Numbered from the stretch's first letter, positions 27,665-44,148 are shown. The stretch: 64,000 nt of DNA from a virus (IMGVR_UViG_3300019376_000001); one strand, 5' to 3'. The notes: a model not told the origin generated them from the letters alone. Translations and numbers: made by a program.

Positions 27665-27931
27665 TTACACCTCGGACGCAGGGGAATAAAAGGAATGGTT
27701 TTCACAGCAGTTACAGCAAGCCACCTTGTCGGTCGTATCTTGGTCGGCATTGTGGCAAGTAGAACAACCTCGGCACTCATCGTGACAGATGTAATCATCA
27801 TCGGGGTCCCAGAAGACAGCGAAGTCGTCGCACTCATTCATAGGGTCATCCAGTGTACACTGGCAGGGGATGGGACTGTCGCTGTAGTAAGGACAGTCCC
27901 AACCATTCATAGGGCAGTGGATGTGAGCCAT
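27665..27931 (-). CDS. Small Cys-rich protein
   Basis: 88 aa with about 12 Cys (CPMNGWDC, CRGCSTC, CCNCC). Confidence 0.7.
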   Translation of the reverse strand: MAHIHCPMNGWDCPYYSDSPIPCQCTLDDPMNECDDFAVFWDPDDDYICHDECRGCSTCHNADQDTTDKVACCNCCENHSFYSPASEV

Positions 27932-28179
27932 TACTGCTTACCCCCACAAATCGCCATGATGTTCGCCATCACTTCCATCATAGCCAGACCTGCTTCGATT
28001 TCCTGCTTTTCACCATAGGAAATGTGGTCGATAGTGACAGTACCCTCAACGAGGTCAACAGTCATGCCAGACGCATAGCGAATTTCACCAGTCGCATCAT
28101 TCACAAGGATAACTTCCTTGTCACCATGGTCAGCCATAACCTCAGACAGCATTGCAATCATCTCAGAAATCTTCATCAT
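27931..28179 (-). CDS. Hypothetical protein
   Basis: GAGGTAGATACTATG leader and own promoter. Confidence 0.78.
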   Translation of the reverse strand: MMKISEMIAMLSEVMADHGDKEVILVNDATGEIRYASGMTVDLVEGTVTIDHISYGEKQEIEAGLAMMEVMANIMAICGGKQ

Positions 28180-28237
28180 AGTATCTACCTCTTTCTTTGT
28201 TTTGTTGTATTTATTATAGCATACTTTGTGGGGTTTG

Positions 28238-28438
28238 TCAAGGGGTTTCAGAAATTATTTTCCAAAATGTTTGTTGCCATTCTTCCCACATCGGAATGAG
28301 CATTTCTTCATCTTGGGGGTTCAACTCACAATGGTAAACCAGTGCCCCATAGGCTTGTGCTTCAAACACGCTCGCAGAAACAGGGCGCTGTTCAGCAAGT
28401 TGTAATCGTGATAGTACAAACTTCGTAACTTGTTCCAT
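28238..28438 (-). CDS. Hypothetical protein
   Basis: MEQVTKFVLSRL..., with a GAGGG RBS and promoter near 28462-28490. Confidence 0.7.
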   Translation of the reverse strand: MEQVTKFVLSRLQLAEQRPVSASVFEAQAYGALVYHCELNPQDEEMLIPMWEEWQQTFWKIISETP

Positions 28439-28626
28439 TTTGTTTCCCTCACTTTCTATACATAGTATACACCATTTCGGGAGAAATGTCAACAGGTAAT
28501 TTTGCACAATTTTCGCTCCAAAACTTTGTGGAATCTGCTAATTGACGAAATTCCGGCCCGCCGCAGGCGAAAACGGCCGGTTTTTGTGCAAAATGACGAA
28601 AAAATCGCCCTTTTGGGGCGATTTTT

Positions 28627-28995
28627 CTACTTTTTCGGCTTTCTTTTCTGCACAAGGGTCAATTCATAGTCATTTTCACCAACTTTGAAGGCGATTTGGC
28701 GCTCTTTATTGGTGATTTCGACCATTTCGTAGCCTTTTTCGCTCAAAAATGCCGAAATTTCTGCAATTATCTGCGATTTTGTCGCATTTTCCTTGCGAAC
28801 TGGCGCTTTTCGTGGGGTTTTCACAGTTTTTTCGCCCACATTTGCGTACTTCTTGGCGGCTTTCTCTTCTTCTTTGGAAAGGTCGAAGGACATTCGCTCG
28901 CCCCTGTCGATTGCCTTATCGTCTGCGATGACTTGCAGAGCCTCTTCTTCGCTGATACCCAAATTTTTCATCAGCTTTGCAACCTGTTCTGTCAT
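28627..28995 (-). CDS. Hypothetical protein (paralog of 33236-33616)
   Basis: LGISEEEALQVIADDKAIDRG...EITNKERQIAF versus LGISREEAEQLVADDEAIDKG...EVTNAEREMLF. Confidence 0.85.
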   Translation of the reverse strand: MTEQVAKLMKNLGISEEEALQVIADDKAIDRGERMSFDLSKEEEKAAKKYANVGEKTVKTPRKAPVRKENATKSQIIAEISAFLSEKGYEMVEITNKERQIAFKVGENDYELTLVQKRKPKK

Positions 28996-29118
28996 AGTTA
29001 TCAACTCCTTTACTGTACCCTTATTATAGCACAGTTAAGGCTATCTGTCAAGGGGTTTTGCAAAATTTTTTTCTACCGCCCTTTTAGGGGAGGGGGCATT
29101 TCTGCCCCCTTGGGGGAG

Positions 29119-29478
29119 TTAGGCTACTTTGGAGAAGTAAGCCTTTCTCTTTTCCTCTGTTCTCTCAACAGAGCCATCAGTTACCAACTGTCTGACAAGG
29201 GCAGACACTCTCTGATTGGACAACTCTGCACACGCAGGCACAGACTTCATCAAATCTGTGATAGTGTACTTCTTGCCGACTTCCATACCTTCAAGGATTT
29301 CAGCCTTGATGCCTTCGTTGGCAACCTGTACAGCAGTAGGTTTCTTTTCAGCAGAGTTTTTCTTTGCGAGCAATTCCAACTCGTGGTCGATGAACGCAAT
29401 CTCGTCTGCGTTCAAGGCATAGTTTGCCTTAATCTGTTCAAACATTTCTCTCTTAGTCATCTTCTTAGTATTAGCCAT
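29119..29478 (-). CDS. Winged-HTH DNA-binding protein, MANTKKMTK family copy 1
   Basis: YTITDLMK...LSNQRVSALVRQLVTDG..V.RTEEKRKAYF pattern. Confidence 0.82.
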   Translation of the reverse strand: MANTKKMTKREMFEQIKANYALNADEIAFIDHELELLAKKNSAEKKPTAVQVANEGIKAEILEGMEVGKKYTITDLMKSVPACAELSNQRVSALVRQLVTDGSVERTEEKRKAYFSKVA

Positions 29479-29979
29479 AGTATCAATTCCTTTCTGGTTT
29501 GTTGGGTTTTCCTTCCCTTTGATGATTTAATTATATCATAGGTTGAGCGATTTGTCAAGAGGTTTTTTGAAGTTTTTTTATTTTTTTTCTCAACTCTCTG
29601 TTGACTTCTCTCTCCCTTTGATTTATTCATTATAGCACATCTTGGGGGATTTGTCAAGAGGTTTTTTGAAATTTCTTAAAAACTTTTTTTGACCTCTATC
29701 AATTCGGCTCTCCCTTACTGACAATAATAGTATACCACAGACCAAGAGAAAATACAAGTGTCAAAATGCACAAATTTTAGGAAAATTATTTTTTATTTTT
29801 TGTGCAACTTTTCTCTTGACAAAATTTGCGGCCGGTGGTATAATGGAAAATTCCGGTCACGCTGGCCGTGACCGGGCCGGCGCTTTGTGCAAAATGCACA
29901 AAACCCCCAGGGGAGCGAATCACCCCAGGGGTCAAGTGAAAATTGAGAGAGGGGAGGGAGGGGCTTGCGCCCCTTGCCC

Positions 29980-30339
29980 TTAGTCCACCTTGGAGAAGTA
30001 AGCCTTGCGCTTCTCCTCAGTGCGCTCCACAGAACCCTCAGTAACCAGCTGGCGCACCAGTGCGCTCACTCGCTGATTGGAGAGGTCAGCGCACGCATCG
30101 ACACTCTTCATGAGGTCAGTAATGGTGTACTTCTTGCCACTCTCCATGGCTTCGAGGATGTCAGCCTTGATACCCTCATTTGCGACCTGAACCGCAGTCG
30201 GCTTCTTCTCTGCGGAGTTCTTCTTTGCCAGAAGCTCCAGCTCATGCTCAACGAAAGCCTTTTCGTCAGCAGTGAGGTTGTAGTTTGCCATAATCTGGCG
30301 GAAGTAGTCAGCCTTAGTCATCTTCTTAACATTTGCCAT
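29980..30339 (-). CDS. Winged-HTH DNA-binding protein, MANTKKMTK family copy 2
   Basis: Shares ELELLAKKNSAEKKPTAVQVANEGIK and SNQRVSALVRQLVT exactly with copies 1 and 3. Confidence 0.82.
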   Translation of the reverse strand: MANVKKMTKADYFRQIMANYNLTADEKAFVEHELELLAKKNSAEKKPTAVQVANEGIKADILEAMESGKKYTITDLMKSVDACADLSNQRVSALVRQLVTEGSVERTEEKRKAYFSKVD

Positions 30340-30469
30340 AGTATCGTCTCCATTTCTCGCTATTGGTTGCGACCCTTTTTGAAGTTTCGTTCCTCTCTTG
30401 GAACATCTTAATTATACCACATGGGGTTTGATTTGTCAAGAGGTTTTCGAAAAAAATTCGCGACTTTTT

Positions 30470-30661
30470 TTCTTATCTTCGCTACTCGCCCACTTCTCAG
30501 CCTTGTTGCTGGCCCAGCCCTAAGTCTACCCTCACCACGCAATCGCTTTGCCACGCTCTGTGGGGGCTACTGGGATTCGTGTATCCTTTGGGTTTCAGTT
30601 CGCTTCGTGTCTGTTTCCACTGTCCTTGGTGGCTTTCGCTGTCAAGGTTCCCCTCTTGACT
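30470..30661 (-). ncRNA. Candidate promoter-driven ncRNA
   Basis: Perfect promoter 30668-30696 and no convincing ORF; hairpins CCTTG..GC-GAAA-GC..CAAGG, GGAT-N6-ATCC and CCAC-N5-GTGG. Confidence 0.45.
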
Positions 30662-30744
30662 GTAATCATTATACCACACTTTGCGGTATTTGTCAAGACC
30701 TTTTTTCAAGATTCTTGACTTTTTTGTGTGAGGTATTGTATCGC

Positions 30745-30902
30745 GCATAATCCCCTATTACTTCAACCTCTGGGGCACTGGTTCACACTTGTATACCGCA
30801 AACGCGAACACCTTGCGGTCAGAAGCAAGAGCCTTGGCTCAAGGGGGAAGTCTTACATCGCTCTCGTGGGCTTCCCTCTTCGGGTCGCTTCCCTTAACTT
30901 CT
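30745..30902 (-). ncRNA. Candidate promoter-driven ncRNA
   Basis: Perfect promoter 30909-30937. 5' CAGAAG pairs with CTTCTG and GGGAAG with CTTCCC; hairpins CCC-GAAGA-GGG, GAGCC-AA-GGCTC and ACC-GCAA-GGT; the only ATG near the 5' end is followed by TAA. Confidence 0.5.
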
Positions 30903-31184
30903 GTATTTATTATAGCACACTCGGCGCTATTTGTCAAGAGGTTTTTTAACTTTTTTCAAAGTTTTTTTGAGCTCCTCTTGGGTGCTCCCCTCACCTGACA
31001 TAGATAGTATACCACATCCAGAAGCAGATTGCAATAGACAGAATGCACAAATTACAGGATTTTTATTTCTCGATCTTTGTGCACATTTTCTCTTGACAAA
31101 AATGCCGGGGTATGGTATAATGGTAAATTCCGCGCGCTACGTTCGTGCGCGCGGCGCTGAAATCTCAAACAAAAAAGCGAGGGA

Positions 31185-31343
31185 TTAACCCTCGCATTCC
31201 TCGTTGCGGTCTTCAATTCGTTCCTTGATTGCCTGGATGGTAGTACCAATCAACAGACCAAGCATCTGCACACACAGACAGCCAACAACACCAACGAGCA
31301 CCCAACCGATGTGGTCAGGAATTTGACAAATAAGTTCTAACAT
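31185..31343 (-). CDS. Small membrane protein (52 aa)
   Basis: MLELICQIPDHIGWVLVGVVGCLCVQMLGLLIGTTIQAIKERIEDRNEECEG, with a GAGGTTGATACTATG leader. Not in the ORF track. Confidence 0.7.
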   Translation of the reverse strand: MLELICQIPDHIGWVLVGVVGCLCVQMLGLLIGTTIQAIKERIEDRNEECEG

Positions 31344-31400
31344 AGTATCAACCTCTTTCCTTAATTTCTGTATTCATTATACCATGGGGGAGGGCTTTTG

Positions 31401-32138
31401 TCAAGCCCTTTCCCCACTATTTTTGAAAACTTTTTTCAAGTCCATTTCCTTGCGTGTTCTCTGGGGGATTCTCCAACACGCAGGGGAAATTTTAGTTTCA
31501 AGTTTTCTGTGCATTGCGTAACACTTTGCGAGAATTTCAACTTCAATTCTCACATCCTCAAGTCCTGTGTGGCTTTCCACAAAATCAACTTGCTTTTTCA
31601 GAAACTTGTAACAAGCCTCAGCACTTGTCTGAATGTTGTCGCTTTCGCTAATTAAACCATTCTGTAAAGCAAATTTTACATAGGAAACTTGATTGAGAAC
31701 CACTTGACAAGCCATGTTCCAAATGCAAATGTAATCAGTTCCCCAAGGGAAGAACCAACGCCAGCGAGATTGAGAACAATAGCGAATTGTATTATTCAAT
31801 GCTCTCTTGTCAAAACCCATGTTGTAAGCACCCACCTTGCGAATGGAATACTTTTTCATGTCCTCATGGATTTGCTTGCGAATGTTGAAAATGCTTTTCA
31901 AAGTGCGAGTGCCATTTTTAATGTCATCCCAATACTGGGGAATCTTTTCAGCAAAGTAGGCACTTTGCATCAAGTCTTTGTGGTCGAGGAACATTTCAGA
32001 AACCACAAAACTTCTTTCAAGGTAAATCTTGCCTTGTCTGTCACAGATTGCATAGCCAATGTCATAGCACAAAGGCTGTTCAATGGTGTTTGCTGTTTCA
32101 GTGTCGATGATTAAAAATAATTCTTTCTTGCGAGCCAT
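31401..32138 (-). CDS. DEDDh 3'-5' exonuclease family protein
   Basis: IDTET, AYNMGFD and HTGLED motifs. Confidence 0.9.
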   Translation of the reverse strand: MARKKELFLIIDTETANTIEQPLCYDIGYAICDRQGKIYLERSFVVSEMFLDHKDLMQSAYFAEKIPQYWDDIKNGTRTLKSIFNIRKQIHEDMKKYSIRKVGAYNMGFDKRALNNTIRYCSQSRWRWFFPWGTDYICIWNMACQVVLNQVSYVKFALQNGLISESDNIQTSAEACYKFLKKQVDFVESHTGLEDVRIEVEILAKCYAMHRKLETKISPACWRIPQRTRKEMDLKKVFKNSGERA

Positions 32139-32244
32139 GGGTATCAAATCCTTTCGTATCAACTGTAATTATTATAGCACTTTCATTTTGATTTGTCAAT
32201 AGGTTTTTGAAAAATATTTTGCGCCCGGGCGAAAAGCTGACCCA

Positions 32245-32718
32245 TTAAAGGGTCTTGCTTTCGCTCACAAAATACTTCACTTCATACTGTGCGAGAATGT
32301 CACGCACCTTTGCACTCTCTTTCTGTGTTGCACAGTAGAAATTGAAAAGGGTATATTTTCCAACATTTTCCACATAGTTGTGGGGAATGTCTTTCAAATC
32401 AAAATGTACTGCGTCAGTCCATTCGTGGGGAACAGTTGCTTCAACTTTCCAAAGTTTGTCCTTGCGTGCCTTTTCTTCGCACCACTTAACAACATACACA
32501 CCAACAAGGTTGCACAGAGCCACAATGCCAGCCTTTAAGTAAAGGTCAAGTTCACACATTAAGTAAACAGTGACAATTGTGTAAAGACCAAAAGCAACAG
32601 CATTTACGATTGCGGCGACCCCTTTACCGCACTTCACAGTGGCGATACTTTTCACTGTCTGAATGATAACATTCAGAATGTTAAGAATGATAAATGTAAT
32701 AAGTAACTGTGTATTCAT
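32245..32718 (-). CDS. Membrane protein (DUF2179/DUF5698-like)
   Basis: Three hydrophobic helices followed by a small soluble domain. Confidence 0.7.
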   Translation of the reverse strand: MNTQLLITFIILNILNVIIQTVKSIATVKCGKGVAAIVNAVAFGLYTIVTVYLMCELDLYLKAGIVALCNLVGVYVVKWCEEKARKDKLWKVEATVPHEWTDAVHFDLKDIPHNYVENVGKYTLFNFYCATQKESAKVRDILAQYEVKYFVSESKTL

Positions 32719-32761
32719 AGCGTTTACCTCTTTCGTTTCTTTCTGTAATTATTATAGCACA

Positions 32762-33007
32762 TCAATGCTCGTTTGTCAATACCTTTTTTTCACTTTTTAT
32801 CATATTTTTTGTAAAAGCATCGGAGAACTCATCCCCATACTCATCGCTGACAAGATAGGCGAGGTATTCCATTACAGTGCTCACCCCATACATGAAATGC
32901 TCATTGCCATTCTTTGCATCGTACCGACCGCAGAACAGACCGCATTCTGTCATTCCGTCAACTACCTTTTCGATTACTTTCTTTTCCTCTTGGTTCAGTT
33001 CTAACAT
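32762..33007 (-). CDS. Hypothetical protein
   Basis: MLELNQEEKKVIEKVVDGMTECGLFCGRYDAKNG..., with an AGGAGG RBS. Confidence 0.75.
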   Translation of the reverse strand: MLELNQEEKKVIEKVVDGMTECGLFCGRYDAKNGNEHFMYGVSTVMEYLAYLVSDEYGDEFSDAFTKNMIKSEKKVLTNEH

Positions 33008-33235
33008 CGTTCTATCCCTCCTGACATTATTAGTATACCACGTTTCGGGAGATTTTGCAATAGGCAATTTGCACAAATTTTCGCCCGCATTTTTGTTGAA
33101 ATTAACTATTGACAGGAATACCGGCCCGCGCACTTGTGCACGGGCGGCCATTATACCACAGCCGGCCCGATTTGTCAAGTGGTAAAAATGCACAAAAATT
33201 AGGGCGAAAGTTTGTGACTTTCGCCCATTGACAAG

Positions 33236-33616
33236 TTAGGAACGAGGGGCAGACAGTACCACCTTAAACTTTCGCCCATTGCAGTGGAAAAGCATTTCCC
33301 TCTCGGCGTTCGTAACCTCAATTCCCTCAATGCTTTCCAATCCCTCAAGGGCTTGCTTGATTTCGTCAATCAGCATTGCCTTGTCGTTGTCGGCTTTGCG
33401 TTCTCTCTTGGTTGTGGTCTTGGTTGTGGTGGTGGTCTTTGTTCCAATGGCTCTTGCCTTTTTGCTTGCCTTTTCTTGCTCGGCACTCAACTCAAAGAGT
33501 TTTGCTCCCTTGTCGATTGCTTCATCATCAGCGACCAACTGTTCGGCTTCCTCTCGGCTGATACCTAACAGACCCATGTGCTTGGCAATCAGTTTTTCTC
33601 TCTCGGATGCTGTCAT
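33236..33616 (-). CDS. Hypothetical protein (paralog of 28627-28995)
   Basis: Same motifs as 28627; likewise lies directly downstream of a MANTKKMTK gene. Confidence 0.85.
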   Translation of the reverse strand: MTASEREKLIAKHMGLLGISREEAEQLVADDEAIDKGAKLFELSAEQEKASKKARAIGTKTTTTTKTTTKRERKADNDKAMLIDEIKQALEGLESIEGIEVTNAEREMLFHCNGRKFKVVLSAPRS

Positions 33617-33704
33617 AGGCAATCCCCCTTTCTGTAATTACATTATACCACACATCAAAGGGGTTGTCAAGGGGAAATTTGCATTTCCCCTTGACTTTTT
33701 TCCC

Positions 33705-34064
33705 TTAGTCAGCGAGGGAGAAATAAGCCTTACGCTTTTCCTCAGTTCGCACAACCACGCCATCAGTGACGAGCTGACGAACAAGAGCAGACACACGCTG
33801 GTTGCTCAGTTCGGCACAGGCAGGAATGGTCTTCATCAGGTCAGTGATGGTGTAGGACTTACCCTGCTCCATACCTGCGACAATGTCGCCCTTAATGCCC
33901 TCATTAGCCACCTGCACAGCGGTAGGCTTCTTCTCGGCACTGTTCTTCTTTGCGAGCAGTTCGAGTTCGTGGTCAATGAACTCAACCTCAGCCTCAGTCA
34001 GAGGGTAGGAAGCCTTAATCTGCTCGAACATCTCACGCTTAGTCATCTTCTTAGTGTTTGCCAT
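33705..34064 (-). CDS. Winged-HTH DNA-binding protein, MANTKKMTK family copy 3
   Basis: Near-identical to 29119-29478. Confidence 0.82.
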   Translation of the reverse strand: MANTKKMTKREMFEQIKASYPLTEAEVEFIDHELELLAKKNSAEKKPTAVQVANEGIKGDIVAGMEQGKSYTITDLMKTIPACAELSNQRVSALVRQLVTDGVVVRTEEKRKAYFSLAD

Positions 34065-34621
34065 AGTATCAATCTCCAATCTCGTGGTAGGTCACGACCC
34101 AAGTTTTTATTCTGTAAGAGGTGTCCCTCTTTACATTCTTATTATAGCACATTGGGAGTTGTTTGTCAAGAGGTTTTTTCAACTTTTTTTTTATTTTTTT
34201 TGTTGACCTCTCAGTAGGTTTTCCCTTACCTTGTATAACTATTATAGCATACTCTTTAGGATTTGTCAATACCTTTTTCAAAACTTTTTTAGAAATTTTT
34301 TGGTAATGGCTTTTTCCTTTTTTCTATAATAATTATAACATAATTTTTTTATTTTGTCAATAGGTTTTTTCAAAATCTTTTTGATGGGATTTTGTTCTCT
34401 CCCTTACTGACAATAATAGTATACCACATCAGCCACCAAAATACAAGTGGCAAATTGCACAAAATTACAGGAAAATCTTTGTGCATTTTGCCTATTGACA
34501 AATTGCTCGAAAAATGTTATAATGGAAGGTTAGGCCAAAACACCGGTCCGCGCGCACGTGGACCGGCCGATGCATTTTGGATTTTGAAATGGAAAAAGCG
34601 AGGGTTTCCCCTCGCTCTTCC

Positions 34622-34774
34622 TTATCGCGTTCTCTGCTTCGTTGTCAGCGAATAGGCAACCCCATTCTCAAAAATGACTTCGTCCTTTGTGATGGACGCA
34701 ACCACCATACCTTCGGGGTTGCTCATGTTTGCGCGAATCTCATTCAGTGCATTTGCTACTTCTCGAATACTCAT
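34622..34774 (-). CDS. Small hypothetical protein (50 aa)
   Basis: MSIREVANALNEIRANMSNPEG..., with an AGGAGAATGATACTATG leader and own promoter. Not in the ORF track. Confidence 0.65.
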   Translation of the reverse strand: MSIREVANALNEIRANMSNPEGMVVASITKDEVIFENGVAYSLTTKQRTR

Positions 34775-34848
34775 AGTATCATTCTCCTTTTCTTTTGGTT
34801 TGTACTTGTATTATAGCATAGGTTTGGGGGTTTGTCAACCCCCATTTT

Positions 34849-35094
34849 TTACTTTTTTGCGCTTACGCTCTTGGGACTGTCATTGGTCAAGGGCATCTGC
34901 GGAGTGGGAGCTTGTGCTTTGGTGATGATTGCATCAACCTGCTCATAGAGTTTGTAAGCCTTGCTCGCCTTGCGATAGACTTTCTTCAACTCGGAGTAGG
35001 TAAGAGCATTGAACTGCTCGTCACTCATTGTGACCCCAACCTTTGCCAACTTGTTGCGGATAGATTTCAAACTCATTTCGGAAAACATTTTCAT
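34849..35094 (-). CDS. Hypothetical basic protein
   Basis: 81-aa ORF with GAGG RBS and own promoter. Confidence 0.7.
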   Translation of the reverse strand: MKMFSEMSLKSIRNKLAKVGVTMSDEQFNALTYSELKKVYRKASKAYKLYEQVDAIITKAQAPTPQMPLTNDSPKSVSAKK

Positions 35095-35152
35095 AGTAAC
35101 AACCTCTTTTCTTTATTTTCTATAATTATTATACCACATTTTTATTTAATTG

Positions 35153-35314
35153 TCAATAGTCTTTTTCAATTTTCTTGAACTTTTTTCTATTGTACGAGCC
35201 TTTGCCCTTTTTGTTCTCGACTACCGACCCACGCTTGCGAAAGTGCAAATACTGTTGCAGTTCTTCGCCCTCTTTCTTAAAAATGCGATTGTCAATGGTT
35301 TTCTTCTTTTTCAT
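35153..35314 (-). CDS. ArfA-like alternative ribosome-rescue factor (53 aa)
   Basis: MKKKKTIDNRIFKKEGEELQQYLHFRKRGSVVENKKGKGSYNRKKFKKIEKDY contains FRxR...NKKGKGSYxRK, the ArfA core as recalled from E. coli ArfA. GAGGTGAG RBS and own promoter. Not in the ORF track. Confidence 0.68.
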   Translation of the reverse strand: MKKKKTIDNRIFKKEGEELQQYLHFRKRGSVVENKKGKGSYNRKKFKKIEKDY

Positions 35315-35368
35315 TTATCTCACCTCTTGGTATTATTATAGCATACCTTTGGGGGTTTGTCAACCCCC

Positions 35369-35857
35369 TTAGGCAACTTTTTTCTTTCTGCCACGCTTAG
35401 GCACATAGTTTTTGTAGTCCTTGCCACACTTCTGCAAATTGTGGAGAGTGTCGAAAGTGACAATCTGTGCGCCGTTGAATTTGATTTGATACTCAATGCC
35501 GTTCACATTGACATCACCACCAACCCAAAAGCCGTCATTATCCCAATCTCTTGCGACCTGACCGAAGTATCTCTGTACCCACATTTCAAAGTTTCTGCCG
35601 TTGTTGCCGTTGGTTACTTCGTAGTCGATTTCGATTGCGCCCTTGCGAATGAGCTGTTCCATGTGCTGATTAGTCAGTCGAAGCTGAAGCTTTTCCTTGC
35701 CACCCTTTTTGCTTGCTTCTTTTTCTACTCGAATGAAGCGAGGCATGATTTCATCAACGATTGCCATGTAGTTCTTCTTCTTGTAAGTGAAACCGAGGAT
35801 GTAACCCTGTGCGCCACTAAACTTTCTGTAGTATCTGATTGCGTTTCCCTTAGTCAT
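35369..35857 (-). CDS. Hypothetical protein, possibly PD-(D/E)xK-like
   Basis: MTKGNAIRYY...GRNFE...GGDVNVNGIEYQIK; GGAG RBS. Confidence 0.7.
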   Translation of the reverse strand: MTKGNAIRYYRKFSGAQGYILGFTYKKKNYMAIVDEIMPRFIRVEKEASKKGGKEKLQLRLTNQHMEQLIRKGAIEIDYEVTNGNNGRNFEMWVQRYFGQVARDWDNDGFWVGGDVNVNGIEYQIKFNGAQIVTFDTLHNLQKCGKDYKNYVPKRGRKKKVA

Positions 35858-36211
35858 TGTTCCTGTCTCCTTTTCTGTTCCGTTCTTTGTATCTTTATTA
35901 TAGCACCGCATTGACCGTTTGTCAAGCACTTTTTTTATTTTTTTTGAAAAAGATGAGGGGCTTTTAGGGGCGTCCCCCAAGGGGTTTGAACCCTTTCTGC
36001 TTGAGCGGCTCAGCATTAAACCTCACCCCTCATCTGTAAGTACAGTATAACACACTCCCCAATAGAAGTCAATAGTCAAAATGCACAAATTTCAGGAATT
36101 TGACCTCTCGCAACTTTGTGCAAATTGCCTATTGACAAAATGCTGAGGAAGTGTTATAATGGAAATTCGTGCCGCCTGGGTCGTGGGCGGCGCGCCAAAA
36201 AGGCGAGAGCG

Positions 36212-36430
36212 TCAAATTGCTCTCGCCCTGATTTGGGTGGGCTTGATGTCTGCGTGACCCTTGTAGGCGTAATACTCAACCCATTCATAGGTGTTGCCAC
36301 AGTGGTCACAGCCACCGACCACGCTCATTGCGATTGTGCCTGTGTCGAGGTCTTCAACATCGTAGTGTGAGATAGAAATGAGGGAGCCGCCGCAAGTGGG
36401 GCAAGTGGGTTCATTCGTGTTAATCATCAT
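36212..36430 (-). CDS. Zinc-ribbon protein
   Basis: CPTC...CDHC in 72 aa. Confidence 0.72.
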   Translation of the reverse strand: MMINTNEPTCPTCGGSLISISHYDVEDLDTGTIAMSVVGGCDHCGNTYEWVEYYAYKGHADIKPTQIRARAI

Positions 36431-36503
36431 GGGGTATCAGTTCCTTTCCTCTTGGTGTAATTAAATTATAGCACAACGGTTTGAAAATGTCAAGGGGAAA
36501 TTC

Positions 36504-36953
36504 TCACATTTCTGCGAGAATTTCCAAGATGTTCTGCACATCATAAGCCTTGCCAGTCCAGTTTGTTCTGTTGCGTTCTTCATCATCGAAAAGCACATCG
36601 AGAGGAGTTTTGCAGAAGTTCTGCTTTGGTGTGCCGTAAGGTACAATGTGGATTTCGTTCCAGTTGACACTTGGCAGATGTTTCTTGAGCCAATCCATTT
36701 TGACTTCGGTAACTGCTCTGTTGTATTCTTCTGTGCCACTCTTGCTCAGCCAAGAGATAACTGCGATGTTGTAGCCATTTCTCTGGAGAGTGTTAAGTCT
36801 GCGAGCGAGAGTTGCAAGTCTAAGCAGAGGCTTTGCGTTTGCGTAAGGGAATGTGTCGCCTGCGATGAGGTATTCGAGCCAGTTTTCTACTCCATAGAGG
36901 TCAGCGATTGTGCCGTCCATGTCAAAGTTGATTGTGATGTTCATAGTCTTCAT
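36504..36953 (-). CDS. HAD-superfamily phosphatase (5'(3')-nucleotidase-like)
   Basis: FDMDGTIAD motif I and LFDD motif IV. Confidence 0.88.
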   Translation of the reverse strand: MKTMNITINFDMDGTIADLYGVENWLEYLIAGDTFPYANAKPLLRLATLARRLNTLQRNGYNIAVISWLSKSGTEEYNRAVTEVKMDWLKKHLPSVNWNEIHIVPYGTPKQNFCKTPLDVLFDDEERNRTNWTGKAYDVQNILEILAEM

Positions 36954-37064
36954 TGTGTTTACTTCCTTTCCTTTTTTGTATCTTAATTATAGCATGGATT
37001 TTCGTGTTTGTCAATAGGTTTTTGAAAAGTTTTTTATTTTTTTTGACCGGGGAAAGTGGGGGAC

Positions 37065-37739
37065 TTAGTCCACCCACTTCGGAAAGCACTTGTTGTACTC
37101 TCTGCCCTTTGCGTCCCACTGGTGAATGTTCTTGTTGAATTTCTTGTGCATTTTCAGACAAGCCACAAAGATTTCCATTTCGATGAGTGCGTCAGCCAGT
37201 GCAGTGTGTTCTTCGATGTAGTCAGCATTTCCAGTGATGAAGCCATAGACAGTCTGTGCAGTAGTAGAGCAAGACTTCTTGGAAGAGGACTGGAAGCCAT
37301 TCTCGTGGCAGAAGTTCGCAAAGCCTTTCTTGTGGCAGATGGTCTGCAAAGCCATCAAGTAAATGTCGATGAACTCAAACTCGTCGAGCAGTTCTCTGCA
37401 AATAGTCTTGGTAAAGTCGAAAGCAGAGTTGTAAGCCATTACATAGCGAACACCATAGAACTTGCAAAGGTTGCGAACGATGGAAAGTGCTTCGGCTTCG
37501 GTAGCCACCGCAGACATTTCGCCAGTCATCAGTCTTTCGCGATAGATAGGGAAGTTCTTCTTTGCGTAATCGTCCTGTGCGATTTCGTCATAGTGTTCCA
37601 TTACAAGCAGAGAAGCGGTTGCGAAAATGTTGCCCTCTCTGTCGTGGATAGTGCAACCGAGGTTGTACATTCCAGTAGGATTAGAAGCTCCGCCAACAGT
37701 TTCAGTATCAAGTGTGCAGTAAATAATTTTCTTGTTCAT
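37065..37739 (-). CDS. DEDDh 3'-5' exonuclease family protein (paralog of 31401-32138)
   Basis: LDTET, AYNSAFD and HTALAD motifs. Confidence 0.9.
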   Translation of the reverse strand: MNKKIIYCTLDTETVGGASNPTGMYNLGCTIHDREGNIFATASLLVMEHYDEIAQDDYAKKNFPIYRERLMTGEMSAVATEAEALSIVRNLCKFYGVRYVMAYNSAFDFTKTICRELLDEFEFIDIYLMALQTICHKKGFANFCHENGFQSSSKKSCSTTAQTVYGFITGNADYIEEHTALADALIEMEIFVACLKMHKKFNKNIHQWDAKGREYNKCFPKWVD

Positions 37740-37846
37740 TGTTATCAATTCCTCTCTCAATTTCTGTATTTATTATAACATAGGTTCGTGGGTTTGTCAA
37801 TAGGTTTTTCAAAACTTTTTTAATTTATTTTGTACGGGCGGTTGGC

Positions 37847-38260
37847 TCACATCGAGCCAACCATTGTAATCCCTCTGTCTTTCAACCATTCGCAGAACTG
37901 TTCAGCAGGGAGCAAGTCCGCAAGGTCTTTCATTGTGTACATTCTTGTAACCTCTTCCCATTCCCACCTGACACGAATGGGCTTGAAAGTCTTTTCTGTC
38001 ATTTTGCTTTTGTTTCTGTAGAAGTCGCCCCAACCAATTTCGATGGTCGGACGATTGCGAAATAGAGTGCAACCAGTTTCTGCATTTCTGATTCTGTGGT
38101 CACGAACTGCCGCAAATGCTTCTTCAAAGGTTTCGAGTGTGTATTCTGTCGTGTTACACTCGCCAACTTCCACATAGCGAATGTGATTCCAAATGGAAGT
38201 GTCGCAGTAGTCATCATTGCCGATTGCCGCATAGCATCTAAGGTTTACTAATTTCTTCAT
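37847..38260 (-). CDS. Hypothetical protein
   Basis: 137-aa ORF with GATACTATG leader and own promoter. Confidence 0.78.
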   Translation of the reverse strand: MKKLVNLRCYAAIGNDDYCDTSIWNHIRYVEVGECNTTEYTLETFEEAFAAVRDHRIRNAETGCTLFRNRPTIEIGWGDFYRNKSKMTEKTFKPIRVRWEWEEVTRMYTMKDLADLLPAEQFCEWLKDRGITMVGSM

Positions 38261-38318
38261 AGTATCAATTCCTCTCTCTTGGTTTCTGTAATTATTATAC
38301 CACGGCTTAGGGGTTTTG

Positions 38319-38642
38319 TCAACCCCTAATCGTAAATAATTCTGGATGTCTTTGACAATTTTTCATTACTCGCTTTTCCATTTTAGGTGACATCTGCCCC
38401 TTGCCCGCCATTCTGTAAAGACGATAGCACTGATTGACATTTGCCATAAATGCAGTTATCACAATGTCACGATACAAATTCTTAACAATGATAATTCCAC
38501 TACTGGTTAGCAAGTACCTCTTTTCTTCTTCAATTACTTCAACTTCAAGCACAGGGTTTGTGAAGCCGAGAACTTCTTCCAATGCTTGCAGTCGGTTTGC
38601 TCGTTCCACTCCTGCGTGGAATGTAGTATTCATAGGTTTCAT
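38319..38642 (-). CDS. Hypothetical protein
   Basis: MKPMNTTFHAG..., with a GGGG RBS and own promoter. Confidence 0.7.
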   Translation of the reverse strand: MKPMNTTFHAGVERANRLQALEEVLGFTNPVLEVEVIEEEKRYLLTSSGIIIVKNLYRDIVITAFMANVNQCYRLYRMAGKGQMSPKMEKRVMKNCQRHPELFTIRG

Positions 38643-38658
38643 CTTTAGTATCCCCCTT

Positions 38659-38841
38659 TCATGCTCTAAGTATACCATACTTTGAGATGTTTGTCAATAC
38701 CTTTTCGTACCATTTTTTGCGACTTACCAACTTAATGCCGAGAACCTCAGCAACCTTGTTGTAAGTCTGTTCGTCGATTGCGTTGCGTACTTCCTCAGGC
38801 TGTTCGCTCCAAGGTCTGTCAATAGTAATGTTCATCATCAT
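38659..38841 (-). CDS. Small hypothetical protein
   Basis: 60-aa ORF with RBS and own promoter. Confidence 0.65.
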   Translation of the reverse strand: MMMNITIDRPWSEQPEEVRNAIDEQTYNKVAEVLGIKLVSRKKWYEKVLTNISKYGILRA

Positions 38842-39021
38842 AGTTATTACCCCCTCATCTTTTGTACCTTAAGTATACACCATTTCGGGATGTTTGTCAA
38901 GCACAAAATTGCACAAATTTTCCACGAGATTTTTGTGCAGATTACCTCTTGGCAGAAACACCGCGCGCCACAGCCGACAGCGCGCGGCCGAAAAAATAAA
39001 AAGAGAGGGTTTCCCCTCTCC

Positions 39022-39231
39022 TTAATTGCTCTTGGAACTCGATTTGAAAAAGCCACCTACAAAACTGAGCAGAGCGCAGATGCCGAAAGCCTGCCAAAAT
39101 GTTAGAGCAAACGCACAGCCGAACAGGCTCATCACCCAGTTAAACAGAAGCATCCCAATCCATGCCTCGAAACACACAACGCCGAACACCAGTGCCAGCG
39201 CGAGAATTACCATCAAACAACCTTCACCCAT
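39022..39231 (-). CDS. Small membrane protein
   Basis: Almost wholly hydrophobic 69 aa; AGGAG RBS. Confidence 0.75.
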   Translation of the reverse strand: MGEGCLMVILALALVFGVVCFEAWIGMLLFNWVMSLFGCAFALTFWQAFGICALLSFVGGFFKSSSKSN

Positions 39232-39303
39232 TGTATCTATCTCCTTTTCTTTTCTTTGTATTATTATTATACCATAATTTTAATTGATTGTCAAGGGGAA
39301 TTT

Positions 39304-39636
39304 TTACATTCCCCTCATTGTTGTTATTGCTTCCATTACCCACTCTTGAAAGTGAGATTTAATAAATTCTACTGTATCAAGATCAGCGCAATTAAAATAA
39401 TCTTTGCGAATGCGCCGAGCCTTTTGTGTTTTTAGAATTTTCATTCGCAAAAAACTTTCTACAAATAGCCTTTCGCATTCTCCGCCGCCAATGTCTAATG
39501 ATTGAAGAATTAAATAATCTTCTTGGAGCAACTGATTACTTCTACGCCTTGCATTAGTCGTTTCCCCAATTTTGATTGCCGTTCTAATTTCTAAATGTTC
39601 TGCGTAATACACTTCTGAATAACATCCGTAAGCCAT
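39304..39636 (-). CDS. GIY-YIG/T5orf172-like protein
   Basis: YSEVYYA...IKIGETTNARRR...ERLFVE...KDYF; AT-richer than its neighbours by eye. Confidence 0.6.
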   Translation of the reverse strand: MAYGCYSEVYYAEHLEIRTAIKIGETTNARRRSNQLLQEDYLILQSLDIGGGECERLFVESFLRMKILKTQKARRIRKDYFNCADLDTVEFIKSHFQEWVMEAITTMRGM

Positions 39637-39715
39637 TTTTACCACTTCTTTCTGTTTCTTTCTGTAATTATTATAGCACAAGGGGTTGAGTTTGTCAACC
39701 CCTTTTTGCATTTTT

Positions 39716-40141
39716 TTACTTTACTTCAACAATCAGTTTGTAAGCTCGGCAAGAGCCAAAACCATAGCGATTGTAAGTAGTTTCTTCCCACCTTACAGAC
39801 AGACAATGCTGAGCAAGATACTCTTCAATGAAAGTCTTGTGATAGTTCTTGTCAGTGCAAGGAGAATAACTCCAATCTCCATTTGCATACTTCTTGCCAT
39901 CGAAACGAATAGGACGCAGTACCTCGTTGCCGTAAGCATCGGAAGCCATAGCGAGGTCAATAGAAGTTGAAATCAGTCCACCCTTAGGGTTGAGAGCCTG
40001 CTTCTCAAGGGCAGGTCCAATCTCAGTTTCACAGAATTCAACACTCGCACCCAACAGACGAGCAAGACTTTCTGCCTTTTCTTTTTCCCACTTCATTACG
40101 CTTGCATTTCTCACAATTGCCAGTTCACTTGCACACATCAT
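39716..40141 (-). CDS. Hypothetical protein
   Basis: MMCASELAIVRN..., with an AGGAG RBS and own promoter. Confidence 0.75.
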   Translation of the reverse strand: MMCASELAIVRNASVMKWEKEKAESLARLLGASVEFCETEIGPALEKQALNPKGGLISTSIDLAMASDAYGNEVLRPIRFDGKKYANGDWSYSPCTDKNYHKTFIEEYLAQHCLSVRWEETTYNRYGFGSCRAYKLIVEVK

Positions 40142-40229
40142 AGTTATCAGTCTCCTTTTGTTTTCCTTTTTTGTATCTTTATTATAACATGGAGGGGGCT
40201 TTTTGTCAAGCCCCTTTTTTAATTTTTTT

Positions 40230-40484
40230 TTAGCAATCATAAGTGTAACATCCTTCGTAAGGGTCAAAGCCAAAATCGTCATCAATGTCAGCAGGCTCTT
40301 CGTAGTCCTCTTCCTCAGGGTCGTAGAAGGCTACTACTTCGCCAGTTTCATCCCACACAAGGGAAGCAGTCTGGCAAGTCATCTCTGCGATGGTCTTAGC
40401 TGCTTCGTAGCAAGCATAGCAAGCTTCAGTACCACTAATAGTAGCGATAGCGTTGTTGTTAATGTAGATAGTATAAGTGTTCAT
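40230..40484 (-). CDS. Small acidic protein ending DDDFGFDPYEGCYTYDC
   Basis: MNTYTIYINNN..., with a GAGAGG RBS. Confidence 0.75.
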   Translation of the reverse strand: MNTYTIYINNNAIATISGTEACYACYEAAKTIAEMTCQTASLVWDETGEVVAFYDPEEEDYEEPADIDDDFGFDPYEGCYTYDC

Positions 40485-40714
40485 AGGTTGTACCTCTCTC
40501 TCTTTCTTTGTATCTATAGTATACCATGCGCGCAGGTATTTTGTCAAGGGTTTTGGGAGATTTATTTTACACAAATTTACGCCGATTTTGCAAGCCTTTT
40601 TTGTGCAGGTTTTACAATAGCACCAATCAGGCGCGCCAGGACCGTGCGCGCGCCTATGGCGGTCTTTCTGTATTAGTGTAGTATTAGTAGTAGTGTGTAG
40701 TAGCACACACTGCA

Positions 40715-41005
40715 TTAGTGTGTGCTTACTCCTACTACCTCATCATCATAGATGTATCCATCAGTGTGTGCTGTGTACATGTGTACATCTACCACTGTGC
40801 CTACGCTTGGTGCTGTGCCCTCTACCTCATAGCACCACACATGTCCTTGCTTGTCCTCTACCTCTGCAAGCTGTCCTTCTGTGTGTACTACTACGCAGTC
40901 CTTGCGTGTGTAGTGTGTCTCTACGTAGCCGCACAGCCCCAGCATGCCCATGAACACTACTACTACCAACAGTATAGTCATCATCTCTGTTACTCTCTTA
41001 CTCAT
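40715..41005 (-). CDS. Small membrane-anchored protein
   Basis: N-terminal TM helix; GAGGTAGATACAATG leader; extreme dinucleotide bias. Confidence 0.75.
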   Translation of the reverse strand: MSKRVTEMMTILLVVVVFMGMLGLCGYVETHYTRKDCVVVHTEGQLAEVEDKQGHVWCYEVEGTAPSVGTVVDVHMYTAHTDGYIYDDEVVGVSTH

Positions 41006-41162
41006 TGTATCTACCTCTTTCTTTACTTCTTTCTTTGTATCTTTATTATACCATTACAGGAGGTTTGTGTCAAGCTTTTTTTACACGTTTGTGCAGACTT
41101 TTTTCTGTGCCTCCTGGCTCTGTGGCAGTTAGGGATAGCAGGGCCGCACACGGTAGCTACCC

Positions 41163-41498
41163 TTACAGAGTAGCTATTACCTTAGCCAGTGCCTCAGTAT
41201 CCATTGCCTCATAGTGTGTCATGATAGTAGCAAGCATAGCCTTTCTCTCTGCTTCTCTCTGTCTCTTAGCTGCTTGTGCTTCTTTGTACTGTGCTACCTC
41301 TGTTGCGTCGTAGCTGTAGCTCTTCTCTCCGTACATGTATGCTGTGCGCACTGTGCCATCCTCTTGGTGTACGTTGATAGTCTTGCTTGTGTGGTAAAGC
41401 ATAGGTCTTGCTTCAGCAGGTGCGCATTCCTTAGTATAGTAGGTGTGTCTGTGTGTCTCATTGTTTCTTACTACGTAGATTGTGCTGATGTGTTTCAT
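41163..41498 (-). CDS. Hypothetical protein
   Basis: MKHISTIYVV..., with a GAGAGG RBS and own promoter; first gene left of the putative terminus. Confidence 0.72.
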   Translation of the reverse strand: MKHISTIYVVRNNETHRHTYYTKECAPAEARPMLYHTSKTINVHQEDGTVRTAYMYGEKSYSYDATEVAQYKEAQAAKRQREAERKAMLATIMTHYEAMDTEALAKVIATL

Positions 41499-41654
41499 TG
41501 TGTGTACCTCTCTCTTCCTTTGTTGTACCCTTAGTATAACACGTTTCGGGAGGTTTGTCAATAGGTAGATTTGCACAATTGTTGCGCCCTTTATTTGTGC
41601 AAGATGTATACCATGCCAACCAGGGCCGCGCCATCCATGCACGGCCCAGCGTAT

Positions 41655-41895
41655 GTATTAGTATGTACATCATTGTGTTGTTTATTATTTATTATTATTA
41701 TCTATTGTTGTATGTATAGATAGATGTGTATGTGTTATGTACTCATTACCTCTTGGTCATTGTGTATGTATCTCTTTGTATGTACATGTGCGTAGCTCTG
41801 TAGGGCGTAGAGAGGGGCGTACCTCTCTGTCTGTGTGTGTGCCTGTGCTGTGTATGCCAACATACCCGGGGGGGTGTATTTCGGGAAAATTTTTT
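41655..41895. other. Low-complexity TG/TAT-rich tract ending in CATACCC-G7-TGTAT; candidate genome end or packaging site
   Basis: ORF-free; ATT, TGT and GTAT microrepeats; G7 at 41868-41874; abrupt composition change to the right. Confidence 0.45.
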
Positions 41896-42014
41896 TTTAT
41901 TGTTGATGAAATGTTATTTCCTGGACAAACCTCCCACTAAATCAATTTCAGATTTCGGTTTACGGGAAAAATAAGAAATGGGTCCCATACCGAATGGTAC
42001 GGAACCCAATCTTT

Positions 42015-42353
42015 CTAAACTCTTTCTACGGCGACTCCAAAAATATTGTTTCGCCCAATAGTGCCATTAATGTGTCCATGGTTGTTTCCAATCGTATACC
42101 GATTTCCATTCTTAATAGCTACTATCTTGTGCAGGTAGTAATGCCCACCCACTCTACATAGAACAATATCATTCTTATGCAATTTCGTATCCTCGGTTAC
42201 AGGAATACAAATAACACTATCTCCACTCTCCAAAATGGGAGTCATGCTTTGTCCATACCCAGTTACCAAACAACTGCGACCCTCACGCAATTTCTGCGCG
42301 GTAATCGCATTTTCTTTTCCATGAAATAGTTCTGCTAAATTGCGCCCTGCCAT
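42015..42353 (-). CDS. S24/S26-family peptidase-like protein
   Basis: GQSMTPILESGD, DIVL and LHKI motifs. Confidence 0.8.
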   Translation of the reverse strand: MAGRNLAELFHGKENAITAQKLREGRSCLVTGYGQSMTPILESGDSVICIPVTEDTKLHKNDIVLCRVGGHYYLHKIVAIKNGNRYTIGNNHGHINGTIGRNNIFGVAVERV

Positions 42354-42355
42354 AA

Positions 42356-42619
42356 TTAGTCCTCCAACCCAACCTTGATTGCGAGTTCAGCTGGAACAGC
42401 AATATTCAATTCTTGGAGCAATTCTGCGGCAAGGCGATATTTATCAGCTTCAATGCGGGCTGAGCGCAAACAAATGTACTCGCATCCGCCGCTTTCCATT
42501 GTGAACAATTCCATGTCATCATTTTCATGGAGTCCCATTCGGTCACGCAAGCCCTTAGGAATCGTGACACGTCCGAGCGCATCAATTTTTCTTGTTGTGT
42601 TTTCTGGTCTAATTCTCAT
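42356..42619 (-). CDS. AbrB/MazE/SpoVT-family DNA-binding protein
   Basis: RKIDALGRVTIPKGLRDRMGL is the AbrB N-terminal signature. Confidence 0.9.
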   Translation of the reverse strand: MRIRPENTTRKIDALGRVTIPKGLRDRMGLHENDDMELFTMESGGCEYICLRSARIEADKYRLAAELLQELNIAVPAELAIKVGLED

Positions 42620-42621
42620 TT

Positions 42622-43479
42622 TTATTCTCCTAATTTAATTGGAATTTGCGCCTCGTCAAGCCGAGGATTTTCAAACAACAGCTTGGCTACCGCCATATTT
42701 TCCAAGAGTGCGCATCTGGTTAAAAGACCAACTCCACCCGGAACTGGGGTTACCAGTCTATTCTCGGTATTAATACAGTCTCCAACCATTTTACCTTCTT
42801 CATTAAAATTAATACCTACATCAATAACCGGTACGTAGATCGGATAGCAGTTCAGGAATCCGGCCTTACCCACCGCGCAAATTATCAAGTCTGCGCTATC
42901 AATAAAGGTATGCAAATTCTTTGTTTTACTATGGCACAATGTAACTGTGCAATTCAAATCTACCAACATTTCTGCGACGGGTTTCCCTACAATCTCAGAA
43001 CGTCCAATTACTACCGCATTTGCCCCCTCAAAATTGAAATTGCATGCTTTCAGATATGTGATAATACCAAGAGGAGTGCAAGGGAAATAAGGACTATCAT
43101 TCTTAAATCCATCTACATCCATGCGGCTTGGGATAAGTCTTGTAATTCTATTTTTATCCAAATGAATTGGTAATGGCAACTGCACAATAATGCCAGCTGG
43201 ATTTTCAGCATTAGTCTGAACAATTTGAATAATGGATTGTTCGACAGTCTCTTGGGTTACTGATTCTGGAAAATGAATAACCTGCGCTTCGATGCCCACT
43301 TCCTGTGCGTCCTTCACTTTATTGCGAACATAGCGTGTTGATGCGGGATTGTCACCAACTTGAATAATATGAAGGATTGCGCGCTGCCCGCTCAGCCGAT
43401 CTTTAAGACTGGCTTTCCAATCGGCACAAAACTCTTTAATATTTTTTAGTTCAAAATTAGTATTTGTTGAAGAAATCAT
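42622..43479 (-). CDS. folD: Methylenetetrahydrofolate dehydrogenase/cyclohydrolase
   Basis: VGDNPASTRYVRNK, GIIVQLPLP, DVDG, PCTPLG, VIGRSEIVGKP, TLCHSKT, IDVGIN and TPVPGGVGLLT motifs. Confidence 0.95.
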   Translation of the reverse strand: MISSTNTNFELKNIKEFCADWKASLKDRLSGQRAILHIIQVGDNPASTRYVRNKVKDAQEVGIEAQVIHFPESVTQETVEQSIIQIVQTNAENPAGIIVQLPLPIHLDKNRITRLIPSRMDVDGFKNDSPYFPCTPLGIITYLKACNFNFEGANAVVIGRSEIVGKPVAEMLVDLNCTVTLCHSKTKNLHTFIDSADLIICAVGKAGFLNCYPIYVPVIDVGINFNEEGKMVGDCINTENRLVTPVPGGVGLLTRCALLENMAVAKLLFENPRLDEAQIPIKLGE

Positions 43480-44013: not shown

Positions 44014-44045
44014 ATCTCCAATATCCTTTCCTCATATTTACTAAT

Positions 44046-44123: not shown

Positions 44124-44148
44124 TATAGTATAAGACTGGAGGTTAAAG

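Follow-up and report, generated by a model that had tools for sequence, protein, structure and literature searches.

The window analysed here, a 64,000-nt stretch of the virus IMGVR_UViG_3300019376_000001, corresponds to positions 74393-138392, read on the reverse strand, of a viral contig of 191,974 bp whose completeness is estimated at 98%. The portal protein of this phage is closest to that of uncultured human-gut phages and, more distantly, to that of 140-kb Enterococcus siphoviruses. To the right of position 44100 lie genes for a phage sigma factor, terminase, portal and tape-measure protein, and the early region on their left (~27300-44074) consists of small leftward genes. The subject of this analysis is a composite intergenic element of that region, the 'cassette', which is built around a dyad of the arms TGCACAA and TTGTGCA. 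Ten copies are found within 13 kb, interspersed among small, poorly conserved early genes; most of the genes downstream of them have a patchy distribution and belong to no Pfam family. What is new in this analysis is that the same dyad occurs in bacterial chromosomes, which suggests that the cassettes carry a regulator site of host type. When 8 kb of the region were compared with the GenBank phages, no near-identical sequence turned up; literature searches for the arm and extended-arm strings returned nothing relevant, and none of the papers searched was found to describe the motif.

Thirty leftward promoters of the early region match TTGACA-17-TGnTATAAT perfectly, and four perfect rightward ones are present besides. 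An arm is borne by one of the thirty (33178), the remainder having A-rich upstream tracts instead. The exact pair TGCACAA-N10-32-TTGTGCA is present six times in the window (29767 and 31044 with N26, 36082 with N27, and 34456, 38910 and 41572 with N16), as against 0.01 expected from shuffled sequences, and the rest of the 191,974-bp genome outside this region contains none. One further pair (40568-40607, N26) has a single mismatch (TACACAA), and three N16 copies are degenerate (28503 with TTGTGGA, 33070 with TTGTTGA and 33189 with TTGTGAC). A preliminary description of the window had listed seven arm pairs by their spacers, and all seven were recovered, six exactly and the seventh with the mismatch mentioned. 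The ten cassettes are as follows.

28464-28580 (-), cassette 1: leftward promoter TTGACA-17-TATACT 28492-28464, no rightward promoter; arms 28503-28509 and 28526-28532 (TTGTGGA, N16); GC hairpin 28553-28580; extra arm 28584-28590.
29729-29901 (-), cassette 2: leftward promoter TTGTAT-17-TGnTATACT 29757-29729, rightward 12/12 promoter 29816-29844; arms 29767-29773 and 29800-29806 (N26); GC hairpin 29853-29875; everted arm pair TTGTGCA-N3-TGCACAA 29885-29901; followed by tandem promoters 29657 and 29558 and the gene for a winged helix-turn-helix (wHTH) protein, 29478-29119.
31006-31195 (-), cassette 3: leftward promoter TTGCAA-17-TATACT 31034-31006, rightward promoter 31093-31121; arms 31044-31050 and 31077-31083 (N26); GC hairpin 31130-31154; terminator of the upstream gene 31177-31195; followed by promoters 30937, 30696 and 30439 and a wHTH gene, 30339-29980.
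33032-33149 (-), cassette 4, degenerate: leftward promoter TTGCAA-17-TATACT 33060-33032; arms 33070-33076 and 33093-33099 (TTGTTGA, N16); imperfect GC hairpin ~33121-33149 with TTGTGCA in its loop; drives an 81-aa gene, 33007-32762.
33150-33226 (-), cassette 5: perfect leftward promoter 33178-33150; arm 33189-33195, N10 from the -35; degenerate partner arm 33212-33218 (TTGTGAC, N16) within the terminator 33202-33226.
34418-34616 (-), cassette 6: leftward promoter TTGTAT-17-TATACT 34446-34418, rightward promoter 34495-34523; arms 34456-34462 and 34479-34485 (N16); GC hairpin 34543-34566; terminator 34597-34616; followed by promoters 34360, 34269 and 34169 and a wHTH gene, 34064-33705.
36044-36227 (-), cassette 7: leftward promoter TTGACT-17-TATACT 36072-36044, rightward promoter 36132-36160; arms 36082-36088 and 36116-36122 (N27); GC hairpin 36168-36194; terminator 36202-36227; downstream gene 36016/35860-35369.
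38872-39023 (-), cassette 8: leftward promoter TTGACA-17-TATACT 38900-38872 with TCCCGAAA in its spacer, no rightward promoter; arms 38910-38916 and 38933-38939 (N16), then a -35 remnant TTGGCA and GC hairpin 38961-38987; terminator 39000-39023; drives a 60-aa gene, 38841-38659.
40518-40655 (-), cassette 9, variant: leftward promoter TTGACA-18-TATACT 40547-40518; arms 40568-40574 (TACACAA) and 40601-40607 (N26), 20 nt from arm to -35; GC hairpin 40629-40655; drives an 84-aa gene, 40484-40230.
41533-41647 (-), cassette 10: leftward promoter TTGACA-17-TATACT 41561-41533 with TCCCGAAA in its spacer, no rightward promoter; arms 41572-41578 and 41595-41601 (N16); GC hairpin 41623-41647; drives a 111-aa gene, 41498-41163.

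Read in the direction of the genes, the order of elements is the terminator of the previous unit, a GC-only hairpin, in four copies a perfect promoter pointing backwards, the distal arm, the spacer, the proximal arm and finally the forward promoter. A strong sigma-70-like promoter is present inside every cassette, forward in each and backward, with 12/12 matches, in four. The forward -10 is TATACT in every cassette and the -35 is often weak (TTGTAT, TTGCAA, TTGACT). The proximal arm lies 9-10 nt from the forward -35 (20 nt at 40568), and the backward -35 lies 9 nt from the distal arm, which matches the forward side. These data confirm the leftward promoter that had been described next to each pair, and likewise the four perfect rightward promoters (12/12 with TG extension, beginning at 29816, 31093, 34495 and 36132) and the four hairpins that had been quoted (29853-29875, 31130-31154, 34543-34566 and 41623-41647). 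Since every arm precedes a -35 by 9-10 bp, what had been called a 'nested palindrome' amounts to two back-to-back promoters around one dyad. The rightward promoters do point into the hairpin as proposed, but the further claim that they point toward a terminator is only partly right, as the stem-loops beyond are the terminators of the upstream leftward genes, whose T-runs are good on the minus strand and no more than weak on the plus strand. Where the backward -10 is missing, a -35 remnant is followed by the hairpin after 5-7 nt. On both sides the arms stay clear of the -35 and the -10, unlike a lambda-type operator, which overlaps its promoter. A second motif, TTTCCCGAAA, adjoins the promoter-proximal arm or sits inside the -35/-10 spacer, and in relatives without arms it occupies the position expected of an UP element; compared with the sites of CodY, PurR and Noc, it showed no convincing match.

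Relatives of the cassettes were collected with a wHTH protein search, which gave 36 loci in viral contigs, and with a pattern that joined a single arm to a perfect promoter, which gave more than 116 contigs; removal of duplicates and clustering of cassettes from related contigs left 99 distinct cassettes. The spacer was found to be 15-17 nt in 47 clusters and 25-27 nt in 43, with none of 18-24 nt, so the helical phasing that had been claimed from seven pairs (two spacer classes one turn apart) is upheld on a larger sample. The distance from arm to -35 is 9-10 nt on both sides in the relatives as well. The 16- and 26-nt spacers, and the promoter distances of 9 and 19-20 nt, each lie one helical turn apart, as would be expected if a bound protein must face the polymerase. 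The bimodal spacers and the fixed distance of the arms to both -35 hexamers thus support the earlier suggestion of a putative protein-bound dyad that is read on one face of the helix. How strongly the dyad itself is conserved can be seen from the cassette at 34456 and its orthologue at locus L006 (wHTH proteins 85% identical), in which the 30-bp dyad is identical at 30/30 positions and the flanks have diverged. In the distant relatives L013 and L037 the hairpin and the backward and forward promoters are kept and the paired arms are missing, and because the rest persists without them the arms can be regarded as an add-on to an older divergent-promoter cassette. At L037, GGGTAC/GTACCC repeat arrays follow the wHTH genes (7400-7640, 9480-9600, 10340-10400), and the dyad is replaced by three to four tandem ATTTCCCGGG-like boxes (9700-9790, 10530-10580), which resemble the Noc-binding site of Bacillus. 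The TATCAA-N10-TTGATA repeats of another relative (L028) were considered as a co-varying operator and rejected, as they are 5'-leader sequences around the ribosome-binding site.

The GC-only hairpin is present in nine of the ten cassettes of the window, and stems of this kind are found nowhere else in the genome. Among the related cassettes it was recovered in 67 of 92, compared to 22% by chance. Across the 1044 unique perfect promoters of the loci retrieved, hairpin starts show a sharp peak at 8 nt past the -10 (41 cases; range 6-10 nt), and in the orthologous pair (34456/L006) the stems differ in sequence and both still pair perfectly. RNAalifold, run on 53 promoter-plus-hairpin sequences aligned with MAFFT, found no consensus structure, since aligning by sequence leaves the stems out of register; selection on structure was therefore judged from the orthologous pair, the enrichment and the offset peak, which indicate that it is the structure of the hairpin that is under selection. 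Over the eight positions that follow the stem, the mean T content is 3.6/8 in the gene direction, versus 0.9-1.7 in the antisense direction. A look at the restriction-site content of the hairpins showed that GC tetramers are not specially distributed. By these sequence features the hairpin is most likely a back-up terminator or insulator against read-through from very strong upstream promoters and, where the backward promoter is present, most likely also the 5' stem-loop of a short antisense RNA. The cruciform or Frpo-like structures that had been suggested for the cassettes find no support, since any stem formed by the arms would enclose a loop of 16-27 nt, and the single-strand folds reach only -6 to -14.5 kcal/mol (z -1.4 to -4.3). 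Furthermore, the promoter spacers are not complementary (by our own count, 9/17 positions agree at 29767); complementarity is confined to the shared promoter and arm motifs, and there are no long stems that would rebuild -35 and -10 in folded single-stranded DNA.

The dyad was also searched for in bacteria. One genome per prokaryote species was scanned for the dyad (N14 between 8-nt arms)-N8-9-TTGACA, a pattern with 22 specified bases. In this way 43 stretches were obtained, nearly all in metagenome-assembled genomes (MAGs) of gut Clostridia, where around 0.1 would be expected by chance according to our own estimate. Many of these were phage-like, with dense perfect promoters, and about a dozen were without a phage-type promoter array. 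The latter precede the gene for glutamine synthetase (glnA), a LysR gene divergent from a binding-protein (SBP) gene, lipoprotein genes, the gene for a Mem_trans membrane transporter and a DUF1385 gene. Further chromosomal neighbours encode a MalK-type ABC ATPase, an EF-G-family GTPase, an EngB-like GTPase and a MiaB-like enzyme, as well as DeoR, YlxM, an M23 peptidase and secreted proteins. Like glnA, the genes from the MalK-type ATPase to YlxM are housekeeping genes. A 1.8-Mb Ruminococcus MAG carries ten exact dyads, on nine contigs, versus 0 for a control pattern. With up to two mismatches allowed, five genomes gave 24, 15, 15, 16 and 4 sites (controls 0, 0, 0, 2 and 1), and the exact dyad was present in 54 of 301 evenly sampled Clostridia genomes, versus 6 for the control pattern. 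The sequence of the dyad is conserved over several Clostridia families. When any spacer of 5-35 nt was accepted, N15-16 was found in 30 of 36 host dyads, and the best promoter offset from the arm was 8-10 nt in 19 sites and 19-20 nt in five; part of this offset sample had been selected with the promoter in the pattern, and unbiased genomes show both peaks too. In the Ruminococcus MAG G009 (L199/L208, L213 and L214), runs of 7-9 G stand between the -35 and -10 of dyad-linked promoters and leave spacers that are too short to work as assembled; these may be phase-variable surface-protein promoters or may reflect assembly compression.

The occurrence of the dyad, at matching promoter distance, in chromosomal promoters of gut Clostridia speaks against the 'phage-specific regulon' of the preliminary description, and the dyad is therefore to be seen as a bacterial cis element and not as part of a regulon private to the phage. 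Its centre near -60, and a second possible position that is one helical turn farther from the promoter, give it the geometry of an upstream activator site. Judged by sequence and position, it is most likely a host-type upstream regulator site that was copied by the phage. With modest confidence we lean towards reading the whole element as a boundary cassette of the phage early region with such a site built in, similar to the 'PeSL' (promoter-early stem-loop) elements of T4-type phages, the stem-loops of which have been shown experimentally to terminate transcription (Arbiol et al. 2010, PMC2839356). In such a cassette, the terminator of the previous unit and the GC-only hairpin would form the boundary, followed in four copies by a perfect sigma-A promoter that points backwards and whose predicted transcript would start ~8 nt before the hairpin. 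The dyad, TGCACAA(A)-N16 or N26-(T)TTGTGCA, then precedes a forward promoter with hexamers that appear deliberately sub-consensus (TATACT, often with a weak -35) and without an A-tract. We infer that the dyad would be the docking site of a putative conserved host factor, a dimer or dimer-of-dimers that might act from ~-60 like a class I activator; a contact with RNA polymerase would be the less likely alternative. By copying the site, the phage would make ~10 of its ~40 early promoters dependent on, or responsive to, the host factor, the other 29 perfect promoters with their A-tracts would fire unconditionally, and the hairpin would shield the conditional promoter from read-through of the very strong upstream units.

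Several observations weigh against this interpretation. The proposed 'activation' rests on the position and the weakness of the linked promoters, and a repressor or nucleoid protein would be equally possible; moreover, the binding factor is putative and the transcription start sites are predicted ones. The 26-nt spacer class is common in the phages and rare in the hosts (2/36), so the version found in phages is no straightforward copy. As the hosts are MAGs, some of the matches may be prophage or mis-binned phage DNA, and an HTH_3 plus S24 gene beside one chromosomal site could encode a prophage repressor. Finally, the hairpin lies 20-24 nt from the arm even where the backward promoter is missing, although a mere terminator needs no fixed distance, and the U-tract that follows it is short.

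The alternative that fares best, though we think it unlikely, is that the dyad is the operator of a phage regulator, a wHTH paralogue or another small early protein, that switches or shuts off some of the early promoters in a way similar to p4 of phi29, which acts between divergent promoters; on this view the phage would use the chromosomal copies as targets for reprogramming host genes. The window encodes three wHTH paralogues of 119 aa that are 83-85% identical (29119-29478, 29980-30339 and 33705-34064), and the relatives have 2-5 copies per locus, an expansion that would suit a regulator family. The protein was modelled as an N-terminal helical hairpin plus a winged helix (pLDDT 89), with weak best fold matches to regulators of the MarR/ArsR/TubR type (E ~2e-3); its homodimer prediction scored 0.15, compared to a mark of 0.42, and was not used as evidence either way. 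Moreover, wHTH genes are the commonest genes downstream of backward-promoter cassettes, in 13 of 23 identifiable cases in relatives and in three of four in the window. Against this stands that a wHTH profile finds no homologue in the five dyad-bearing bacterial genomes, which include ones with 15 to 24 dyads, that the relatives L025 and L028 have an unchanged recognition helix and degenerate arms, and that among the early proteins of the window none is distributed in step with the dyad. The arms also do not overlap the -35 and -10 as classical phage operators do. The wHTH family had been put forward as a candidate binder of the dyad, but given the missing host homologue, the decay of the arms in L025/L028 and the lack of co-distribution, its genes are better read as targets of the cassettes; the proteins may compete with the host factor at the dyad.

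Several other features accompany the wHTH genes. Two copies of a partner gene of 122-128 aa lie directly downstream of wHTH genes (28627-28995 and 33236-33622), and all related loci examined have retained this gene pair, neither protein being of known family. Each wHTH gene is preceded by two to three perfect promoters that are 91-260 nt apart (29530-29657, 30411-30937, 34141-34360), with no convincing open reading frame between them, and similar arrays are found before wHTH genes in relatives; transcription dosage, short RNAs or polymerase capture are possible explanations. Opposite the wHTH and partner genes run long antisense frames of 148-312 aa (28696-29541, 29965-30411 and 33279-34217, plus strand), which are probably a by-product of the codon bias of the coding strand and not genes.

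The arms could also form a lineage-specific upstream promoter element that is read by RNA polymerase itself, via the alpha C-terminal domains or sigma, in which case the phage would simply use the strongest host design. The fixed position just upstream of the -35 in phage and host would suit this, as would the conservation of the sequence across several Clostridia families and its presence before diverse, probably highly expressed genes that do not belong to one metabolic pathway. On the other hand, ~4-24 sites per genome is far below the number of promoters, the 29 perfect phage promoters have A-tracts and not arms, and the strict dyad symmetry with a gap of 14-16 nt is unlike UP elements as generally known, which together leave this explanation with a slim chance.

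We consider it similarly improbable that the main product of the cassette is an RNA. The four backward promoters would then make antisense RNAs with a 5' GC stem-loop. Like lambda oop RNA, these would base-pair with the upstream messages at their 3' ends, or else prevent read-through by collision, and the dyad would only tune them. The backward promoters are indeed perfect (12/12) in the window and recur in 26 cassettes of relatives, the hairpin starts at a constant 6-10 nt after the -10 with stems that co-vary, and the predicted plus-strand RNAs (73-135 nt) are strongly structured (z -2.6 to -4.6). However, five or six of the ten cassettes have hairpin and dyad and no backward -10, the plus-strand terminators are weak, and a search of Rfam at a permissive threshold gave three sub-threshold chance matches, none of them on a cassette. 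Contigs from animal gut metatranscriptomes (runs X1-X4) that match 27000-44200 are short, 90-97% alike and break at the repeated promoters; as they carry no information on strand, start or end, they cannot show plus-strand RNAs.

Lastly, it is very improbable that the cassettes are chiefly PeSL-like recombination linkers that shuffle small early genes, with arms and hairpins as homology patches or targets of recombination proteins: the shared composite design between ORFan-like early genes (strong sigma-70-type promoter, AT-rich tract and GC stem-loop; PMC2839356) and the duplication of wHTH/partner and exonuclease genes in the region would fit, but homology patches need neither exact 16- or 26-nt spacers nor a fixed 9 nt to the -35 and would not precede single-copy housekeeping genes in bacteria.

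Some observations on the surroundings can be added. In front of the gene downstream of cassette 7, an ATG at 36016 is in frame through the perfect promoter 35925-35897 into a 163-aa gene (36016-35369, minus strand), and the cassette promoter could therefore give an N-terminally extended form of 215 aa. The phage-encoded sigma factor (44149-45201, plus strand; phrog_5767, E 3e-53), which has its own near-consensus promoter at 44095, stands where the leftward early region gives way to rightward structural genes. At 42015-42619 (minus strand) an AbrB/MazE-type protein of 87 aa is encoded, followed by an S24 peptidase-like protein of 112 aa without a helix-turn-helix; the AbrB-like gene is present again in most relatives. 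In the whole genome, including the window, CTAG is absent (0 versus ~690 expected from base composition), GATC is depleted ~15-fold (43 versus ~690) and ACGT 4-5-fold, which looks like strong restriction-site avoidance.

Returning to the reading of the dyad as a copied host site, a more specific form of it can be put forward tentatively, with a confidence that falls somewhat short of even: an undescribed factor that is widely conserved in gut Clostridia, or else a polymerase contact, would read CACAAA-N14-TTTGTG at ~-60 of ~15-25 promoters per genome, and a large clade of their phages would have built copies of this host enhancer into a certain, defined group of early promoters. If true, this group would include the promoters that head the arrays before the expanded wHTH genes, and the early programme of the phage would partly read the physiological state of the host. 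Little is known about transcription control in uncultured gut bacteria of the Oscillospirales/Ruminococcus type or in their large lytic phages. A phased dyad common to host and phage early promoters provides a concrete handle, usable as bait for the factor, and it defines a testable host regulon of surface proteins, sugar-uptake components, glnA and GTPases. For the phage early genes it suggests a split into an unconditional class, with perfect promoters and A-tracts, and a host-conditioned class.

Among known systems, several resemble parts of the cassette. The ComK boxes of Bacillus subtilis likewise show discrete spacing classes of half-elements that differ by whole turns, which imply a protein complex bridging the half-elements on one face of the DNA; these boxes are AAAA-N5-TTTT pairs, however, and neither their sequence nor their spacer values are like those of the dyad. 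The p4 switch of phi29 (A2b/A2c-A3) shares an inverted repeat with arms around two turns apart, an AT-rich and probably bent spacer, and a site between back-to-back phage promoters of unequal strength, but the arm sequence is another one, no p4-like protein was seen (no search aimed at it was made), and the present dyad also occurs in host chromosomes whereas p4 sites do not. A class I activator site, as exemplified by CRP at -61.5 of lac, is similar in lying near -60 just upstream of the -35, in having alternative positions one turn apart (here 9 versus 19-20 nt) and in that one site can serve two divergent promoters. The differences are that the arm centres are separated by 23 bp, against the 22 bp that a complete CRP site occupies, that the CRP consensus is absent, and that activation is here a proposal from position. 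In overall design the cassettes resemble the PeSLs. Elements of both kinds are small and composite and recur between the genes of an early region rich in ORFans, and each combines a strong sigma-70-type promoter and an AT-rich upstream tract with a G+C-rich stem-loop, which shields adjoining units from each other in the PeSLs (PMC2839356) and would probably do so here. The present cassettes differ in their conserved, phased dyad and, in many copies, their perfect backward promoter; they also belong to siphovirus-like phages of gut Clostridia and not to T4-type myoviruses, and there is no sequence relationship. They extend the idea of portable promoter/terminator units, as embodied in the PeSLs, to phages of Gram-positive anaerobes.

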